DNA of 64,000 nt from an uncultured Methylomirabilota bacterium (GCA_963705305.1 OY970067.1:5152001-5216000); one strand, 5' to 3'; counted from the stretch's first letter, positions 14,473 through 20,797 are shown. Made by a program: numbers and translations. Notes: a model not told the origin generated them from the letters alone.

Positions 14473-14747
14473 CAGACTGATCAAAAAGGCCCAGATGTCC
14501 CTCGACCTGGCTCGGGACCATGAGCCTGTCGAATGGCAAGGCGCCGTCACCCATCCCTCGGGATGGGTACCCGCCGCGGGGTACCCACCGGAGGTGGGTC
14601 GGAGGCGTACTTACCTGAACGTCGCAGCGCCGCGGGAGCGCGGGGGGTACCCGTCCGAAGGATGGGCACCCATCAGATGGGCACCCATCAGATGGGCACC
14701 CATCAGATGGGTACCCGGCAGACGGGCCTTTTTCAGCAGCCTGCTAG
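14473..14747. mobile_element. MITE-like non-autonomous element with imperfect terminal inverted repeats
   Basis: Left cagactgatcaaaaaggccc (14473-14492) vs reverse complement of right end caggctgctgaaaaaggccc (14724-14743), 17/20 match; CTAG at the right border; no transposase. Confidence 0.6.
14661..14716. repeat. Tandem repeat of near-palindromic 15-mer GATGGGCACCCATCA (3 full units plus variant)
   Basis: Units at 14661, 14676, 14691, then gatgggtaccc at 14706. Confidence 0.9.
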
Positions 14748-15752
14748 GCCTGCAGGCCGTACCGCGAGAGCGCGGCCCCGACGATCTCGCAGATCGTCTC
14801 GGGGTGGGTGCGGCCCGAGGCGCGGGCCCCGCGGATGAAATCGGCCGTCGTGTGCAGGTACGGGTTCGGATTGGCCTCGATCAGATAGACCTTGTGGTCC
14901 TCGGTGATGCGGAAGTCGAAGCGGGCATAGTCCCGCAACTGGAGCGCCTGGAAGCTGGTGACGGCGGCGTTCTGCGCCGCCTCCACGATATCGGCGGGCA
15001 GATCCTCGGGGATCCGGTACTTGCTCCCCCGATAGGCGCGCGTCCCCTCATACCACTTCACCTCGGTCCCGGCGATCCGGGGGGTGCCTTCGGGGAGGTG
15101 GGACAGATCCAGCTCGACCAGGGGAAAAGCTTTGGCGTCGGCGTTGCCCAGGACCCCGATGTAAACTTCCCGCCCATCGATGTACTGCTCGATCAGCACC
15201 GGATTGTCGAAATCGGCGTGCAGCTGATCGATCCGCTCCATGAGAATCCTTGATGCTCTCCACCAGCGCGCTGAAGCCGATCCCGATTGAGCCGTCCTCC
15301 CGCCCCGGCTTGACGATCACCGGAAAGTCGATGTCGTGCGCCCAGTCCAGCCGGCCCCGGAAGACGGTGACGAACTTCGGCGTCAGGATGCCGTGGAACT
15401 GCAGGACCTTCTTGGTCAGGGCCTTGTCCATGGCCAGGGACAGGCCGCGCGGTCCCGACCCCGTGTACCGCAGCCCCAGCAACTCGTAGTAGGCGGCCAC
15501 GTACGGTTCCTTGGTGTCGTCGTCCCCGAAGGATTCCACCAGGTTGAACAGGATGTCCGCCTGCACGTCCCGCATCCGGGCGAGACAGTCCTTGGTTCCG
15601 TCCACGACTACCGAGAACACCTCGTGGCCGGCGCGCTCCAGGACCTCGCGAATCTGCTGGACATCCGTCCGCCGGCGCCGCCGCCGCCCGGTCGCCTCGG
15701 CGGCGGGAGCCTCTTCAGGGGTGTGGGCGATCCCGATTCGCAGCGTCGCCAT
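14744..15752 (-). CDS. D-Ala-D-Ala ligase-like ATP-grasp protein (1-nt frameshift near 15245)
   Basis: FNLVESF, YTGSG, MDKALTK, PVIVKP.EDGSIGI in one frame; LIEQYIDGRE, DYARFDFR, IEANPNP in the next. Removing one base gives ESIKDLMERID. Confidence 0.85.
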
Positions 15753-16824
15753 GACTCTCCTCTCCCGCGGGGCGGGGGGAAGGTTTCGGAGGCCGGCGCA
15801 TGGGCGTCCGGGCCCGCGGGACGAAGCTCCCCCGCGTCAGGTAATTCATGGTCAGGGTCGTGGTGTACGCGGTCAATTCCAGGAGGACGGTGCACTCTCT
15901 GCGGATCTCCACGTGCAGCTGCATCCGCTCCGCCGCCTGCTCGATGCTGTCCACAAGGGCCCGGACCGCGCTCCGGCGGACGCCGGTCCAGTACTCCACC
16001 TTGCCGATGAGCTCCATCCGGTAATCCCGGACCATCTCCCAGGCGGGGCGGATGCCGCGCTTCCGGCGGCCCTTTCGAATGAAGAAATCCGGCAGGTCGT
16101 TCTCCAGGGCCACGTCCACCGGGGTCACCTCCCCCTGGTTGGCCCGGAAGAACTCCTCCACGGTCATGTCCATCTCCGCCACCGTGATGTCGGTGGAGGC
16201 GAGCCGGACCGGCGGCTCCTGGTCGGCCACCGCCCGGGCGATCCGGTGCACGTAGCGCAGCTTGCGCAGCGCCGGCCAGCCCCGGTAGCGCACGCGCCAG
16301 CGCGAACCGGGTGTGAGCCAGACGGCGAACGTCTCGGCGAAGTCGTCGTCCGGATGCTTCTGGGCATACCACCCCTCGATATGCCGGACGAAGTTCCGAT
16401 CGAAGGGGACGGGCCGATAGCGGTCGCGGTAGGGGCGGTTGAAGGGGCCGAACAGCTCGCGCCATTCCGGCGTCTCGTAGATCTTGTAGGCGTAATTGAA
16501 GGCGTGGCCGGCCTCGTGGCGCAGGTACATGCGGATCTCCCGCTCATCCTCGAGGTCGTCGATCTCCTTCTCCAGGCGGGCCAGATCGGCGTCTGCCAAG
16601 TAGAACGGGATCCCGATGATCGGCTCCCCTGACGGACAGCCCCACTCGTCCGTCAGGTAGCACGGCGGCCGAAAATGCTTGAGGCCCTTCCGCTCGATCT
16701 CGCGGTAGAGCTTCTGCACGTACCGCTCGACTGGCGACCCTTCAAGCTTGAGTCCGAGCTGGCTGATACGCTGGGAGAGGAGAGGCCGCAGGCTTGGCAA
16801 GGTGCTCTCAAATGTCCGCATCAT
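15715..16824 (-). CDS. Putative zinc-binding metallopeptidase (Peptidase_Mx-like)
   Basis: HEAGH zincin motif, DEWGCP, IPFYL, YAQKHPDDDFAETFAVWL. Confidence 0.85.
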   Translation of the reverse strand: MMRTFESTLPSLRPLLSQRISQLGLKLEGSPVERYVQKLYREIERKGLKHFRPPCYLTDEWGCPSGEPIIGIPFYLADADLARLEKEIDDLEDEREIRMYLRHEAGHAFNYAYKIYETPEWRELFGPFNRPYRDRYRPVPFDRNFVRHIEGWYAQKHPDDDFAETFAVWLTPGSRWRVRYRGWPALRKLRYVHRIARAVADQEPPVRLASTDITVAEMDMTVEEFFRANQGEVTPVDVALENDLPDFFIRKGRRKRGIRPAWEMVRDYRMELIGKVEYWTGVRRSAVRALVDSIEQAAERMQLHVEIRRECTVLLELTAYTTTLTMNYLTRGSFVPRARTPMRRPPKPSPRPAGEESHGDAANRDRPHP

Positions 16825-17120
16825 CTCTATAATGCCATGCCCGCGCCGTCATTTCAATGCCTGCATCCATTTGTTCCGATCACGACCCGGGGGTCGCGAC
16901 GATTCGGCCGAAAAGCCGGCTCTTGCACCTGCGCGGGCCTGGTCTTTCGTCGCAGCGGAGCTGCCAGGACTCGGCCCTTCTTGGTGCGATCCATGTCCGG
17001 TGCCGGGTACCGAGTCGTGCGTCTCCGCATCGTTAGGTTTCGAAACATGTCGCGATGCATCCTCTGCGGTCGGATTTGAGTGTTTTCCGAAATAGCTGTG
17101 CTCACAATAAGTTGCCGCGC

Positions 17121-17148
17121 TTGCAAAAGGGAATAAGCGATATATATT
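17121..17148 (+). promoter_or_regulatory. Putative sigma70 promoter of the riboswitch-DUF2294 transcript
   Basis: TTGCAA-N16-TATATT in an AT-rich patch just upstream of the riboswitch. Confidence 0.5.
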
Positions 17149-17153
17149 AGTAG

Positions 17154-17273
17154 GTGAGAGGGGAGTAGATCTTTCCTCACTGGTCTGGTGGGTTCGTCAG
17201 CACGACCGTCATTGAAGCTGCGGTCCGGCTCACCAGACGCGGGGCGGAAGGCCCCAAGATCGAGACCTCTTGC
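17154..17273 (+). ncRNA. yybP-ykoY (Mn2+) riboswitch aptamer
   Basis: AGAGGGGAGUAG ... CGUCAGCAC ... GAUCGAGACCUCU. P1 gtgagagg/cctcttgc, P1.1 gatctt/aagatc, P3 gtctggtgggtt/ggctcaccagac, inner gaccg/cggtc. terC lies downstream. Confidence 0.85.
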
Positions 17274-17301
17274 GTGGAGTGGCACGCAAGAGGTTTTTTT
17301 T
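17265..17301 (+). terminator. Intrinsic terminator, riboswitch expression platform
   Basis: Perfect 12-bp stem acctcttgcgtg/cacgcaagaggt followed by a T-run; the 5' arm overlaps the aptamer P1 3' strand (ON-switch geometry). Confidence 0.9.
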
Positions 17302-17386
17302 ATCCCCCGATGCCATGACGACCTCCGGCAGGCCCACGGGAGACTCGCAGCCCCACGCCGCTACCCCACGCGGAGAGGAGGGAAAG

Positions 17387-17803
17387 ATGCCCGTCCTTGA
17401 CAGTGTGGGAGAGATTTCCGGCCGCTTGCAGGGCAATGCCTGCAGCCATACCAGGGGCCAGATCGAGGCTGAGATCAGCAAGGCCATTATCCGATTTGAC
17501 TGCCAGCACCTGGGACGGGGCCCGGCGGACGTCCGGACGCGGATCGTGCAGGACATGATCATCGTCCGCTCCATCGACGTCCTGACCCCCTCCGAGCACG
17601 CCCTGATCAAGGTGGGGAGCGTGGAGCTGGTGAAGCAGGTGCGGTCGAAGCTCTACGAGAGTCACCGGGAGGAGCTGATCCGAACTCTCCGCAACCTGAC
17701 CGGATGCGAGATCATCAGCATGCACCGCGACCTCAGCACGCGGACGGGGGAGCGGTTGATTGTGTTCGTCACGCGTGAGAATGTGGAGGCGCTATTCCGG
17801 TGA
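17387..17803 (+). CDS. DUF2294 / MpsC-family protein (copy 1)
   Basis: TRGQIEAEISKAIIRF...GRGP.DVRT.IVQDMIIVR...LTPSE...VKQVR...HRDLSTRTGE; RBS gaggaggg. Confidence 0.88.
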   Translation: MPVLDSVGEISGRLQGNACSHTRGQIEAEISKAIIRFDCQHLGRGPADVRTRIVQDMIIVRSIDVLTPSEHALIKVGSVELVKQVRSKLYESHREELIRTLRNLTGCEIISMHRDLSTRTGERLIVFVTRENVEALFR

Positions 17804-17848
17804 GAGGCGAACGACCCACGGGCGATCTTCTTTCCTGGCCGTTTCCGC

Positions 17849-17877
17849 TTGACAGGAAGGCAGGTCTGCCTGATTCT
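17849..17877 (+). promoter_or_regulatory. Putative sigma70 promoter upstream of leader motif copy 1
   Basis: TTGACA-N17-GATTCT. Confidence 0.45.
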
Positions 17878-17910
17878 TAAGTTGAGTGGGCTAGCTAGCT
17901 GGCTACCAAA

Positions 17911-18011
17911 GACCGGCGGACGAGACGAAGGGTAGCCCTCGCGGGGCGACCAGCAGTAGCGTAGGCCGGCACGGGGATATGAAGGAATCCCTGTGCCGGC
18001 CTATGTTTTTT
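17911..18011 (+). ncRNA. Candidate cis-regulatory leader RNA (copy 1) fused to an intrinsic terminator
   Basis: CGGCGGACGAGACGAAGGGTA-hairpin-GGGCGACCAGCAGTAGCGTAGGCCGGCA; 17-bp stem 17962-17978/17987-18003 followed by tgtttttt. Confidence 0.75.
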
Positions 18012-18192
18012 CTCGGGCCCGCATGTTTCGGCAAGGTGGAGGCGACCCAGGTACACTACGGCTCGAATCCGGACGGGGACGGAAGGGCGGAGAGGACAAG
18101 CATCGACTTTTCCCGGGGAGCGAAACAGGAGCGAACTGGAGCATCACGGGGATCCGCGTTTCAGCACGAGACCTGGAAAGGGGGTGGCAGAG

Positions 18193-18606
18193 ATGCCCGC
18201 TCTTGGCAGCGTGGGAGAGGTGACCGGTCGAGTGAAAGGCGCCGTGTCTTCCCGAACGAAGGGGCAGATCGAGGCCGAGGTCAGCAAGGCGATCATCCGG
18301 TTTGACCGCGAGCACTGGGGACGGGGCCCGGCGGACGTTCGGACGCGGATCGTGCAGGACATGGTCATCGTCCGCTCCATCGACGTCCTGACCCCCTCCG
18401 AGCACACGCTGGTCAAGACCGGGAGCGTGGATCTGGTGAAACAGGTCCGATCTAAACTGTACGAGAGCCACCAAGCGGAGCTTTACCGGATGCTTCGCGG
18501 GCTGACCGGCTGCGAGGTCATCAGCATGCATAGCGACCTCAGCACGCGGACCGGGGAGCGCTTCATCGTGTTCATCCTGGGCGAGAATCTGGAGCAGCGC
18601 ATGTAG
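18193..18606 (+). CDS. DUF2294 / MpsC-family protein (copy 2)
   Basis: Close paralog of 17387..17803 (TKGQIEAEVSKAIIRF, GRGP, HSDLSTRTGE). Confidence 0.88.
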   Translation: MPALGSVGEVTGRVKGAVSSRTKGQIEAEVSKAIIRFDREHWGRGPADVRTRIVQDMVIVRSIDVLTPSEHTLVKTGSVDLVKQVRSKLYESHQAELYRMLRGLTGCEVISMHSDLSTRTGERFIVFILGENLEQRM

Positions 18607-18639
18607 CGGCGCGCGAGCAGCGACACGGTCCGGACGACA

Positions 18640-18738
18640 CGGCGGACGAGACGAAGGGTAACCCCGGCGGGCGACCAGCAGTAGCGTAGGCCGGCAGAGG
18701 GATCACACTGGGATTCCTGTGCCGGCCTTTCGTTTCTT
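18640..18738 (+). ncRNA. Candidate cis-regulatory leader RNA (copy 2) fused to an intrinsic terminator
   Basis: Same 21-nt and 28-nt blocks as copy 1; stem aggccggcagagggatc/gattcctgtgccggcct followed by ttcgtttctt. Confidence 0.75.
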
Positions 18739-18794
18739 GGGATCCACAGACGCGGGGGCAATGGTGATGGGAATCTGATCCGAGGAGGTGAGAC

Positions 18795-19832
18795 GTGGAC
18801 GCGCACTGGTTGTGGCTGGTGTTCGGCGTCGTTGTGCTGGCCATGCTGACGTTCGACATCGTGGTGTTCTGCCGAAGACCGCGCGTCCTGCCCCTCCGCC
18901 AGGCATTTCTCTGGAGCATGGCCTGGGTCTCCTTGGCCCTCATCTTCGCCGGGTCCGTATACGTCGTGGAGGGGCCCAATAAGGGACTGGAGTTCGTCAC
19001 CGGCTACCTGATCGAGTGGTCCCTGAGCATGGACAATCTGTTCGTGTTCCTGGTGATCTTCACCTATTTTGCCGTTCCCCAGATGTACATGCACCGCGTA
19101 CTCTTCTGGGGGATCATGCTGGCGGTGATCCTGCGGGGGTGCTTCATCGCCGCCGGGCTGACGCTCCTCGCCTACTTCCACTGGATCATGTACGTCTTCG
19201 GGGCTTTCCTGATCTTCACAGGCCTCAAGCTCTTGCGGCAGGGGGACGAGCACGTGGAGCCGGCGAGGAATCCGGTCCTCCGTCTGTTTCGCCGGTTCTT
19301 TGCGGTGACGCCCGACTATCACCAGCAGAATTTCTTCGTCAAGCTCAACGGGCACTGGCTGGCGACCCCCCTGACCCCGGTGTTCATCGTGATCGGCACC
19401 ACGGATATCATGTTCGCGGTGGACTCCATCCCGGCCATCTTCGCCATCACGCGGGACCCGTTCATTGTGTACACCTCCAACGTGTTTGCCGTCCTCGGCC
19501 TGCGGGGGCTGTTCTTCCTGCTGTCGGGGATCATGGGGCTCTTCCGCTTCTTCAAATACGGCCTTTCGGTCGTGTTGATGTTCGTCGGCGTCAAGATGCT
19601 GGTGGCGGACTACTATCACATCACCTCCGGGGTGTCCCTGGCGGCCGTTGTTTCGATTCTGGGCGCGTCGATCCTGATCTCCATCATCTTTCCCGAGCGT
19701 CCGGAGCCGGCACCTGCGCCCCTCGCCTGCTCGGAGGCCGATGCTTCCGTCGAAGAGACGGGCGAGGGTCGCGGCTGGACCGAGGCGAAGGACCGGGGTG
19801 CGGTCGGCGCGCGATCGCACACGGCCCGATGA
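18795..19832 (+). CDS. terC: TerC/Alx family metal (Mn) homeostasis membrane protein
   Basis: GYLIEWSLSMDNLFVF, HRVLFWG, DIMFAVDSIPA, IVYTSNVFAVLGLR; RBS gaggagg before GTG. Confidence 0.92.
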   Translation: MDAHWLWLVFGVVVLAMLTFDIVVFCRRPRVLPLRQAFLWSMAWVSLALIFAGSVYVVEGPNKGLEFVTGYLIEWSLSMDNLFVFLVIFTYFAVPQMYMHRVLFWGIMLAVILRGCFIAAGLTLLAYFHWIMYVFGAFLIFTGLKLLRQGDEHVEPARNPVLRLFRRFFAVTPDYHQQNFFVKLNGHWLATPLTPVFIVIGTTDIMFAVDSIPAIFAITRDPFIVYTSNVFAVLGLRGLFFLLSGIMGLFRFFKYGLSVVLMFVGVKMLVADYYHITSGVSLAAVVSILGASILISIIFPERPEPAPAPLACSEADASVEETGEGRGWTEAKDRGAVGARSHTAR

Positions 19833-19894
19833 GGTGGGCGGAATGACGAGCTATCGACGCGGGAGAAACATCAGGCCAAAGGAAGGAGACGGTC

Positions 19895-20797
19895 ATGCGT
19901 ATCGTGCTGGGTGTTGACGGATCGGAGGGGGCGCGCTGGGCGACGGAGGTCATCCTCGCGCTGCCTCTCCCGCCGCCGGTGGATGTGACTGCCGTCTCGG
20001 TGATCGATGTCCCGGAGCCGCCCTTCACTTCCCTGACGGGGCCGGCCCGCAAGGCTTATGCCGGGGCCGTTGCAACGATGCGGCGCGAGGCGGCGGAGGC
20101 GGCGGCGGCGGCGCTGGGAAAGACCAGGGATCATTTGCACGGGCGTGTCTCCAGCCTCACGACCCAGGTCAAGACAGGCCGCCCCGCAACCGTCCTCTGC
20201 GATACGGCCAAGACGCTGGCAGCCGACCTCTTGGTGGTGGGCTCGCGCGGGTTGGGCCCGGTAAAGGGGATGCTGCTGGGCAGCGTCTCGCACGAGGCTG
20301 TTCGCTCTGCCCCCTGCTCCGTCCTGGTGGCCCGCGGCCCGGTGATCGATGTGCAGCGGGTGCTGCTGGGCGTGGACGGCTCCGTCCACAGCGAGGCGGG
20401 GGCGAAGTTCCTGGCGGGCCTGTCTTTTTCCCCGCAGGCCACCATTCATCTCTGCGCGGTGGCGGAGCAGCCCATCTTTGGCCCCGGGCACACGCCGAAG
20501 ACCCCGGAGGAACTGGCAGAAGCGCTGCGGACGATCGAGAAGGTGGCACGGGCGGGGGCTGAGCGGGTGCTGGCGGACACGCAGGCGCTGCTGGGCACCA
20601 ATGGTTGCAGCATCGTCCCTTCTCTGCGCTCCGGCCACCCGGTGGATCACCTGCTGGCGGCCATCCGGGAGTCCCGCCCTGATATCGCCGTCGTCGGCGC
20701 CAAGGGGCGCACGGCCGGAAAGGAGCATCCGTTGGGGAGTGTGACGCTCATGGTCCTCAAGTACGCCTCGTGCTCCGTGCTTGTGGTCCGATCGTAA
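19895..20797 (+). CDS. Universal stress protein (tandem USP domains)
   Basis: Two copies of VLGVDGS...VVG(S/A)(R/K)G...LGSV...CSVLV. Confidence 0.92.
   Translation: MRIVLGVDGSEGARWATEVILALPLPPPVDVTAVSVIDVPEPPFTSLTGPARKAYAGAVATMRREAAEAAAAALGKTRDHLHGRVSSLTTQVKTGRPATVLCDTAKTLAADLLVVGSRGLGPVKGMLLGSVSHEAVRSAPCSVLVARGPVIDVQRVLLGVDGSVHSEAGAKFLAGLSFSPQATIHLCAVAEQPIFGPGHTPKTPEELAEALRTIEKVARAGAERVLADTQALLGTNGCSIVPSLRSGHPVDHLLAAIRESRPDIAVVGAKGRTAGKEHPLGSVTLMVLKYASCSVLVVRS

Follow-up and report, generated by a model that had tools for sequence, protein, structure and literature searches.

A candidate two-layer RNA control cascade joining a Mn-riboswitch-like leader, DUF2294/MpsC and terC-usp in an uncultured Methylomirabilota bacterium

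We analysed a 64,000-nucleotide stretch of DNA (the window) from an uncultured Methylomirabilota bacterium (GCA_963705305.1, OY970067.1:5152001-5216000). Between positions 17121 and 20797, counted from its first letter, the window holds three leader RNAs, two genes for the small protein DUF2294/MpsC, a gene for a TerC-family membrane protein (terC) and a gene for a universal stress protein (usp). The genome to which it belongs is a single contig of 5.65 Mb, 98.9% complete. An earlier reading of this DNA, made from the sequence alone, had described three leader hairpins and two DUF2294 genes followed by terC and usp, and had proposed that a Mn2+ riboswitch induces DUF2294, which in turn opens the terminators of the repeated leaders. 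The anatomy was confirmed by Pfam, repeat and hairpin analysis, and the features are given below. R2 and R3 are covariance models described in the following paragraphs; MFE stands for minimum free energy and AF2 for AlphaFold2.

17121..17148, plus strand: sigma-70-like promoter before leader 1, TTGCAA-16-TATATT, 9 of 12 matches in a consensus scan (a consensus match only).
17148..17275, plus strand: leader 1 aptamer, a Mn-riboswitch-like variant (model R3, 113.7 bits; family covariation; MFE fold). Parts: P1, 17156-17161 with 17266-17271; GGGGAGUAG, 17160-17168; P1.1, 17169-17171 with 17258-17260; asymmetric loop UCAGCAC, 17197-17203; CGAGAC, 17261-17266.
17262..17305, plus strand: terminator 1, a 15-bp stem and U8, whose 5' arm holds the 3' strand of P1 (terminator scan, 17262-17297, and folding).
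17387..17803, plus strand: DUF2294/MpsC copy 1, 138 aa (PF10057, E 9.4e-35).
17849..17877, plus strand: putative internal promoter, TTGACA at 17849-17854, a 17-nt spacer and GATTCT at 17872-17877 (conserved in congeners; a promoter role is suggested by this conservation).
17909..18016, plus strand: leader 2, a DUF2294-linked rod/terminator switch (R2, 80.6 bits, E 2.5e-22). Parts: P0, 17913-17917 with 17965-17969; rod, 17920-17962; terminator, 17959-18006; U tract (U6), 18006-18011.
18193..18606, plus strand: DUF2294/MpsC copy 2, 137 aa (PF10057, E 1.4e-36; AF2 model, pLDDT 93.1).
18635..18742, plus strand: leader 3, second copy of the switch (R2, 64.7 bits, E 2.3e-17; inverted repeat; fold). 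Parts: P0, 18640-18643 with 18690-18693; hairpin, 18688-18728; interrupted U tract, 18729-18739.
18795..19832, plus strand: TerC-family membrane protein, 345 aa (PF03741, E 2e-47).
19895..20797, plus strand: universal stress protein (Usp) with two Usp domains, 300 aa (PF00582, E 3.5e-45, two matched stretches).

Both DUF2294 copies scored far above the Pfam cut-off of 23 bits (copy 1, 119.5 bits over profile positions 1-109 of 111; copy 2, 125.4 bits over positions 1-110), and the two proteins are 76% identical. The leaders that follow them are a real repeat, as had been claimed: positions 17914-18009 and 18640-18735, compared piece by piece, are 81-91% alike, and the whole genome contains two copies of this leader and, likewise, two of DUF2294. 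The two units of DUF2294 and leader are duplicated in tandem at periods of 806 and 726 nt, leader 2 starting 106 nt after the stop codon of copy 1 and leader 3 starting 29 nt after that of copy 2. The claim of three serial terminators stood in part. The terminator scan, which found 8 terminator-like sites against 2.7 expected, listed 17262-17297 and 17959-18006; the third element, at 18688-18728, is a hairpin with 20-nt arms followed by an interrupted U tract (UUUCGUUUCUU) and was not called. The observation that mpsAB and dabAB genes are missing from the window was extended by the genome search. No DabA (PF10070) was found in the whole genome, at 98.9% completeness, and the locus does not show the arrangement of an MpsABC/DAB operon, in which DUF2294 lies beside DabA and a NuoL-like DabB.

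Of the 20 congeners searched, 2 (G006 and G014) have the same arrangement, with three leaders, a pair of DUF2294 genes and TerC. The element GTTTCCGCTTGACAG upstream of leader 2, which contains the TTGACA box, is kept in all three congeners, with TATCGT as the -10 in two of them. Because this box, with a weak -10, is conserved across the three congeners, the segment between copy 1 and leader 2 is probably a promoter, which would give leader 2, copy 2, leader 3 and terC-usp a transcript of their own as well.

Leaders 2 and 3 are members of a widespread RNA family and not private repeats. A covariance model was built from six leader copies of the window's genus (R1) and applied to 80 DUF2294 loci from many phyla, which had been fetched with a protein alignment (a single-protein search had yielded only 2 relatives). 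A second model, R2, was built from 33 R1 matches in other lineages, with no sequence of the window genome, G006 or G014 in its alignment, and recognised leader 2 and leader 3 with the scores listed above. Read from 5' to 3', the consensus consists of YYGGY (the 5' strand of helix P0), a rod, GUARGCCGG and a U tract. The rod, about 55-60 nt long with three internal loops and few invariant unpaired bases, is made of three short helices (P1a, P1b and P2) separated by purine-rich 2x2 loops; P2 varies in length, and P1b has 4 bp in most lineages and is degenerate in the window's genus. The GCCGG of GUARGCCGG serves twice, as the P0 3' strand and as the beginning of the terminator stem. Rfam 15 at gathering score gave no match across 74 kb from 20 other DUF2294 loci, 18 of them motif-bearing, and no account of the rod/terminator motif was found in the literature searched, beyond which accounts may exist.

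Covariation and folding both indicated that the two helices compete. In the 33 sequences, P0 and the rod were paired in 88.5% of alignment cells, 18 of 20 pairs changed on both sides, and 145 cells had changed on both sides compared with 44.5 in shuffled alignments; none of 500 shuffles reached this value, and slid controls were 21-44% paired. The alternative structure, rod plus terminator, was paired in 93.2% of cells. P0 is the weakest helix, with 3 solid bp and up to 5 in some lineages (pair 6/110: UA 8, CG 7, UG 4, other 14; pair 9/107: CG 22, UA 4, UG 2, other 5). Since P0 was part of neither search model's structure, its covariation is an independent test and no artefact of model fitting. 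When leaders 2 and 3 were cut before the 3' arm of the terminator, the MFE structure was P0 plus rod (-29.7 and -23.1 kcal/mol), and when they were complete it was the terminator (-54.8 and -48.3 kcal/mol). By default the switch is thus OFF, and read-through requires something that holds P0 and the rod. The ON logic, in which the antiterminator helix P0 excludes the terminator, is thus supported by covariation and folding, which counts in favour of the sequence-only reading.

Other descriptions of these leaders were tried and set aside. The idea that they are a circular permutation of the Mn riboswitch L1 loop (GAGAC ... AGUAG) was rejected, as the wider family does not keep these strings. An outer helix joining the A-rich 5' part to the U tract, present in MFE folds of the window's leaders, was not conserved in congeners. 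An exact-pattern scan for the leader core returned 30 places in the genome collection, which we estimate to be about chance for 17 fixed bases; paired copies were found on one contig only, from a Methylomirabilota metagenome-assembled genome (MAG).

The motif was found next to DUF2294 genes in many phyla. R1 at E<=0.01 detected it in 27 of 79 DUF2294 loci (the congener's own locus excluded), and R2 at E<=1e-5 in 48 of 80, about 30 of which supplied R2 sequences and match by construction, so that roughly 18 are new. At 46 of the 48 loci the motif shares the strand of the gene and follows it closely, usually starting 30-250 nt past the DUF2294 stop codon. Because the DUF2294 gene precedes the motif, DUF2294 is not simply the regulated gene. 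Three loci (L067, L068 and L118) carry a motif on the strand opposite the neighbouring DUF2294 gene; such copies, together with those lying far from DUF2294, favour a trans-acting factor and disfavour a coupling to translation.

Co-occurrence was also seen at the level of whole genomes, in counts that are given without statistics and that overstate the association, since related genomes are not independent. Among 151 genomes of the window's phylum, the motif (E<=1e-4) was present in 12, among them the unpublished genome G132 with a weak match, PF10057 in 9 and both in 8. All matches of at least 49 bits fell within these 8 shared genomes, each of which has DUF2294 near a motif match on the same contig. 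The four genomes with the motif only gave weak matches (28-41 bits, versus 49-87 bits for full motif copies), and the 3 that were inspected had no rod and were plain terminators. In 151 genomes of Planctomycetota, the motif (E<=1e-6) was present in 11, PF10057 in 13 and both in 10. A DUF2294 open reading frame (ORF) lay within 1.5 kb of 11 of the 20 Planctomycetota motif sites. The remaining 9 lie in six genomes, and for 7 of the 9 the genome has DUF2294, either by another motif copy (G173, G179 and G308) or elsewhere (G222 and G313); none was found in the sixth, G233. In neither phylum sample was the leader common in genomes lacking DUF2294, the outcome that the sequence-only reading had named as counting against it, and the proposed tie between leader and protein is supported by comparison: a model built without this genus recognises both copies in the window, and the motif sits just 3' of DUF2294 across many phyla.

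Some loci showed unusual arrangements. In two Rokubacteria MAGs, a motif copy on the minus strand (L067:1457-1568 and L068:1446-1556) faces away from DUF2294 and towards a gene of the Na/Ca-exchanger family, and a second copy follows DUF2294, so that one regulator gene would be flanked by two targets. Two tandem motif copies lie behind a TTGACA box, between DUF2294 and a divergent MpsC paralog, at L017:1959-2232 and at L018 (genomes G047 and G049, of the same taxonomic order); tandem pairs also occur at L119, L097, L112 and L116.

The genes behind the motif in other genomes were taken as the first sizeable downstream ORFs and assigned by Pfam. A second, more divergent MpsC paralog was found at about 10 loci and GTP-dependent phosphoenolpyruvate carboxykinase (PEPCK) at 7, two of them behind such a paralog. 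SAICAR synthetase (PurC) followed at 5 loci, AIR carboxylase (PurE) at 1, Sbt_1 bicarbonate transporters at 2 and DabA or NuoL-like DabB at 3. Further targets were biotin carboxylase, carboxyl transferase, biotin-protein ligase (2 loci), carbamoyl-phosphate synthase (CPSase), ATP-citrate lyase and pyruvate:ferredoxin oxidoreductase, as well as DUF4914 (2), chorismate synthase (2), Usp (2), Na/Ca exchangers (3), a TerB-like protein, enoyl-CoA hydratase, an amino-acid permease and a sigma factor. Most of the target enzymes use or supply CO2 or bicarbonate, which fits the place of MpsC beside the MpsAB/DAB carbon-uptake genes. In a relative from another family of the same order (L057), the gene order is dabB, DUF2294, motif, dabA. 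The large protein DUF4914 recurs directly behind the motif in other phyla (L142:1043-2638 and L129).

PF10057 is a large family, with 3635 cluster representatives at E<=1e-3. AF2, given 114 aligned sequences, returned a confident alpha/beta model (pLDDT 93.1) that combines a long helix at the N-terminus with two beta hairpins and three helices. Among the residues that hardly vary are a GRGP loop, R61, K83 and R86. No relative with a solved structure was found by sequence, the best match being nitrophorin at E 0.18. Foldseek gave TRAPP Bet3/TPC6 and H-NOX as best matches (E 7.8e-3 to 0.1, TM 0.35-0.45), and VIA gave a best Z of 7.0, with a V4R protein at 4.9, RbfA at 5.9 and phage-neck matches too, all below the level at which the tool is informative. 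The homodimer prediction scored 0.09 against a mark of 0.42, which is evidence neither way.

Leader 1 is of a different kind. From 5' to 3' it consists of the P1 5' strand, GGGGAGUAG, P1.1, a long helix with the invariant one-sided loop UCAGCAC, a small hairpin, CRAGAC and the P1 3' strand, which sits within the 5' arm of terminator 1. P1.1 covaries across three congeners (AUCUU/AAGAU, GUU/AAC and AUC/GAU), and the MFE structure of the aptamer alone contains P1, P1.1 and two hairpins. A covariance model of this aptamer, R3, was run on the 151 genomes of the window's phylum and found 13 sites in 11 genomes. In the family alignment of 14 sequences, which is fitted to the R3 model, 91.2% of cells were paired and both partners had changed in 19 of 30 pairs; neither the covariation score nor the paired fraction was reached in 500 shuffles, and slid controls paired at 30-52%. 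The string GGGGAGUAG is retained in 13 of the 14 members and also occurs in the Rfam RF00080 consensus, and CRAGACC follows P1.1.

The genome of the window has a second site of this type (C1:2111536-2111656, equivalent to L176:1501-1621; R3, 69.8 bits); another TerC-family gene follows it immediately, without an intervening DUF2294 module. Inspection of the genes after 11 other leader-1 sites showed TerC at four (L176, L171, L172 and L166), DksA/TraR-type zinc-finger proteins at 3, HAMP histidine kinases at 2, an AI-2E transporter at 1 and transposase-related ORFs at 1. R3 found nothing in the 80 DUF2294 loci of other phyla, so leader 1 is not a general companion of DUF2294, and nothing at the one canonical RF00080 site of the phylum. 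Three congener loci (L166, L167 and L168) have leader-1-type elements before small DksA/TraR-type C4 zinc-finger proteins, with TerC next in L166. The congener G003 has a leader-1-type match (C115:662-784) and a PF10057 match (2123-2380, within a 345-aa open frame) on the same strand and contig; G003 showed no R2 motif, and this contig may hold a fused or rearranged module.

The sequence-only reading had labelled 17154-17273 a yybP-ykoY riboswitch, and this label did not survive as given. An Rfam scan of the whole window at gathering score matched no family, and RF00080 (yybP-ykoY) was not listed at E<=10 on 16800-19000 or on 17100-17330, where, as in the other E<=10 lists for the leaders, only chance-level miRNA and sRNA names appeared. 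The best RF00080 match in the genome is 13.6 bits, away from leader 1, against a gathering score of 45 bits, and the equivalent leaders of two congeners were not matched either. The label thus falls by the criterion that the sequence-only reading had set for itself. The Rfam 15 model has 177 positions and a long 3' hairpin. Because it passes in only 2 of 14 control genomes, with Lactococcus lactis surfacing only at E<=10, its silence on leader 1 is weak evidence, and the model may miss real variants of the Mn riboswitch. Among 101 genomes of the phylum the only canonical match was in G112 (49.5 bits). At this site, as in the Rfam 15 consensus, GGGGAGUAGC is followed by a short hairpin and then by a helix with the loop CGUCAACAUAC. 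The first conserved string and CGUCA recur in leader 1; its 7-nt one-sided loop, CGUCAGCAC, is two bases shorter and lies in a helix matching the Rfam gCGUCAACAUACUUGg helix, with the small hairpin after, not before, that helix. We read leader 1 as a clade-specific, Mn-riboswitch-like ON switch. Mn2+ as its ligand is a guess drawn from TerC and the shared motifs; TerC is the commonest target of Mn riboswitches according to PMC5737381.

Collectively, the RNA families, their covariation, the competition between helices, the gene linkage and the gene contents led us to propose a two-layer RNA control cascade, to which we give a probability of roughly 0.55. In the first layer, a ligand, probably Mn2+, would keep P1 of leader 1 closed and so block terminator 1, and DUF2294 copy 1 would be made. 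In the second, DUF2294 would act in trans as an antiterminator, binding the rod and P0, perhaps only in a form loaded with its own signal, so that the terminator is excluded and transcription reads through. Copy 1 would thereby open leader 2, with its own conserved putative promoter; copy 2, lying behind its own target, would reinforce its own expression and then open leader 3, a second gate that must be passed before terC-usp is expressed. A relay by way of the protein, in addition to read-through, would agree with the conserved putative TTGACA promoter before leader 2. The order of events is thus essentially the one proposed by the sequence-only reading; what changes is the first sensor, where a variant takes the place of a canonical yybP-ykoY element. 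If DUF2294 has a ligand, the motif's targets in other phyla and, by analogy, the alx precedent described below suggest inorganic carbon or pH.

A broader proposal is tentative, and we would sooner expect it to fail than to hold. According to it, DUF2294/MpsC would found a class of ligand-gated, RNA-binding antiterminators that sense inorganic carbon (CO2/bicarbonate) or linked pH and govern carboxylation enzymes and carbon uptake in many phyla through one leader RNA. In the window this module would have been duplicated behind a Mn-type riboswitch, with positive feedback, so that making the TerC exporter requires the two signals at the same time.

Antitermination at a leader terminator is an established mechanism. 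In the hut operon of Bacillus subtilis, a small regulator gene comes first, followed by a terminator-bearing leader and the regulated genes, and the ligand-loaded regulator, HutP, prevents termination. The order here is the same, from DUF2294 gene to terminator leader to target genes, with DUF2294 binding as a proposal. Unlike HutP, DUF2294 matches only PF10057 in Pfam, with no HutP among the listed fold matches, and the RNA is a covarying rod with an antiterminator helix instead of the UAG repeats of hut. In the BglG/LicT/SacY/GlcT systems, a protein-stabilised RAT hairpin overlaps the 5' arm of the terminator and excludes it. The ON logic of P0 and rod versus terminator is the same, whereas DUF2294 has no CAT or PRD domains, the rod with its three internal loops is much larger than a RAT, and the motif's regulon elsewhere comprises carboxylation and inorganic-carbon genes, not sugar uptake. 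The kind of mechanism is thus known from these systems, but not this RNA, its presumed protein factor or the way they are wired. New here are the tandem cascade, its riboswitch-like trigger, the TerC-Usp target and the leader-1 family.

Leader 1 resembles yybP-ykoY (RF00080) in having GGGGAGUAG after P1, a 7-nt one-sided loop beginning CGUCA, CRAGACC before the P1 3' strand, a terminator overlapping P1 (an ON switch) and TerC as a recurrent downstream gene. It differs in failing the covariance model at E<=10, in its hairpin order and in its shorter loop, and also in directly controlling a DUF2294 gene, with TerC two terminators further on. The Escherichia coli alx leader, upstream of a TerC-family gene, is reported to combine Mn2+ with alkaline pH (PMC12934788 and PMC10197570). 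As proposed for terC here, alx is a TerC-family gene under two inputs, one of them a Mn-type riboswitch; there both inputs act on one RNA, whereas here the second would come through a separate protein-RNA module, present twice. The terC RNA motif (Weinberg et al. 2017, PMC5737381), described as an orphan cis-regulatory RNA before TerC-family genes and thought to be metal-cation related, is also a leader upstream of a TerC-family gene. Neither leader type, in contrast, matched the Rfam terC model; only chance-level Rfam names were returned on 16800-19000 at E<=10.

Several observations weigh against the proposed cascade. The motif is missing within 1.8 kb at 32 of the 80 DUF2294 loci, one Planctomycetota genome (G233, with a 42-bit match) has the motif and no DUF2294 that we could find, and the dependence among related genomes inflates the co-occurrence. 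The confident AF2 model shows no recognised RNA-binding fold, and the fold searches gave no clear match from which a fold could be assigned. In Staphylococcus aureus, deletion of mpsC gave no growth phenotype and mpsC was dispensable for transport, and transcription of mpsA was lower at 5% CO2 (PMC6689103); these results are compatible with a regulatory role of MpsC and do not show one. In this genome the target of the module is terC-usp and not a set of carboxylation genes, and the search for DabA found none, so the inorganic-carbon reading carries over to it weakly. The Mn2+ input in turn is weakened by the failure of leader 1 against RF00080 and by a junction that differs from the Rfam consensus.

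These points bear on three other explanations. Leaders 2 and 3 might be true riboswitches for a small molecule or ion, for instance one tied to inorganic carbon or pH, with DUF2294 as a habitual neighbour (a helper, a co-regulated gene or a metabolic partner). Their architecture is that of a classic transcriptional ON switch, a plain rod with a terminator resembles some ion riboswitches, which also counts against the cascade, and tandem copies occur at L017, L119, L097 and L112, as they do in some riboswitches; the 9 of 20 Planctomycetota sites without DUF2294 within 1.5 kb, the genome in which none was found and the lack of a recognised RNA-binding fold in the DUF2294 model point the same way. 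The gene order argues otherwise, since DUF2294 lies upstream of the motif at 46 of 48 loci and is not its target. So do the genome-level co-occurrence (8 of 8 in the window's phylum for matches of at least 49 bits, and 10 of 11 in Planctomycetota) and the scarcity of invariant unpaired bases in the rod from which a pocket could be formed; moreover, we know of no riboswitch class that requires a linked protein gene. We consider this explanation unlikely. That the three hairpins are ordinary intrinsic terminators or insulators, multiplied by the tandem duplication of DUF2294 and leader (periods of 806 and 726 nt) and free of signal-dependent switching, was already disfavoured and seems to us very improbable. 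Full-length leaders do fold as terminators, but a plain terminator would not keep a rod and P0 that are conserved and covarying across many phyla, and the weak matches without a rod score well below the full copies (28-41 versus 49-87 bits).

The remaining alternative concerns leader 1, which could belong to a riboswitch class of its own that has short motifs in common with yybP-ykoY but responds to pH, a metabolite or a different cation; in that case the Mn input of the relay would be mistaken, however the second layer behaves. In its favour, RF00080 failed to match in three genomes even at E<=10. The small hairpin comes after the helix that bears the loop, reversing the Rfam order, and the loop is CGUCAGCAC and not CGUCAACAUAC. 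Some of the downstream genes, too, encode HAMP kinases, DksA/TraR zinc-finger proteins or an AI-2E transporter. The retention of GGGGAGUAG in 13 of 14 members and the CRAGACC that follows P1.1 speak for a Mn-type element, as does TerC, which follows 4 of the 11 inspected sites outside the operon, also closes the operon of the window and is, according to PMC5737381, the commonest Mn-riboswitch target. The Rfam 15 model also looks insensitive, as its control genomes indicated. On balance, we favour the Mn-type reading and regard a different ligand as a minority possibility that deserves to be taken seriously.

If the two-layer cascade is correct, it would provide a function for DUF2294/MpsC, a family with thousands of members whose deletion had no phenotype in the one organism studied. 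Antitermination systems, of which few are known, would gain a new RNA-protein pair, and a hitherto unrecognised control route for CO2/bicarbonate-dependent metabolism in many phyla would come into view, covering PEPCK, PurE/PurC, biotin carboxylases, CPSase, Dab and Sbt. The window would then offer a natural case of two such switches in series and would link a riboswitch to the module, one RNA sensor governing how much is made of the protein that acts on the next RNA. In addition, the window brings to light a family of Mn-riboswitch-like variants missed by the Rfam model.

Outside this locus, an ATP-grasp, D-Ala-D-Ala-ligase-like gene on the minus strand (window positions 14744-15752) is apparently split into two overlapping ORFs in different frames, which may reflect a frameshift, a pseudogene or an assembly error: 15048-15752 has no Pfam match, and 14744-15241 carries Dala_Dala_lig_C.

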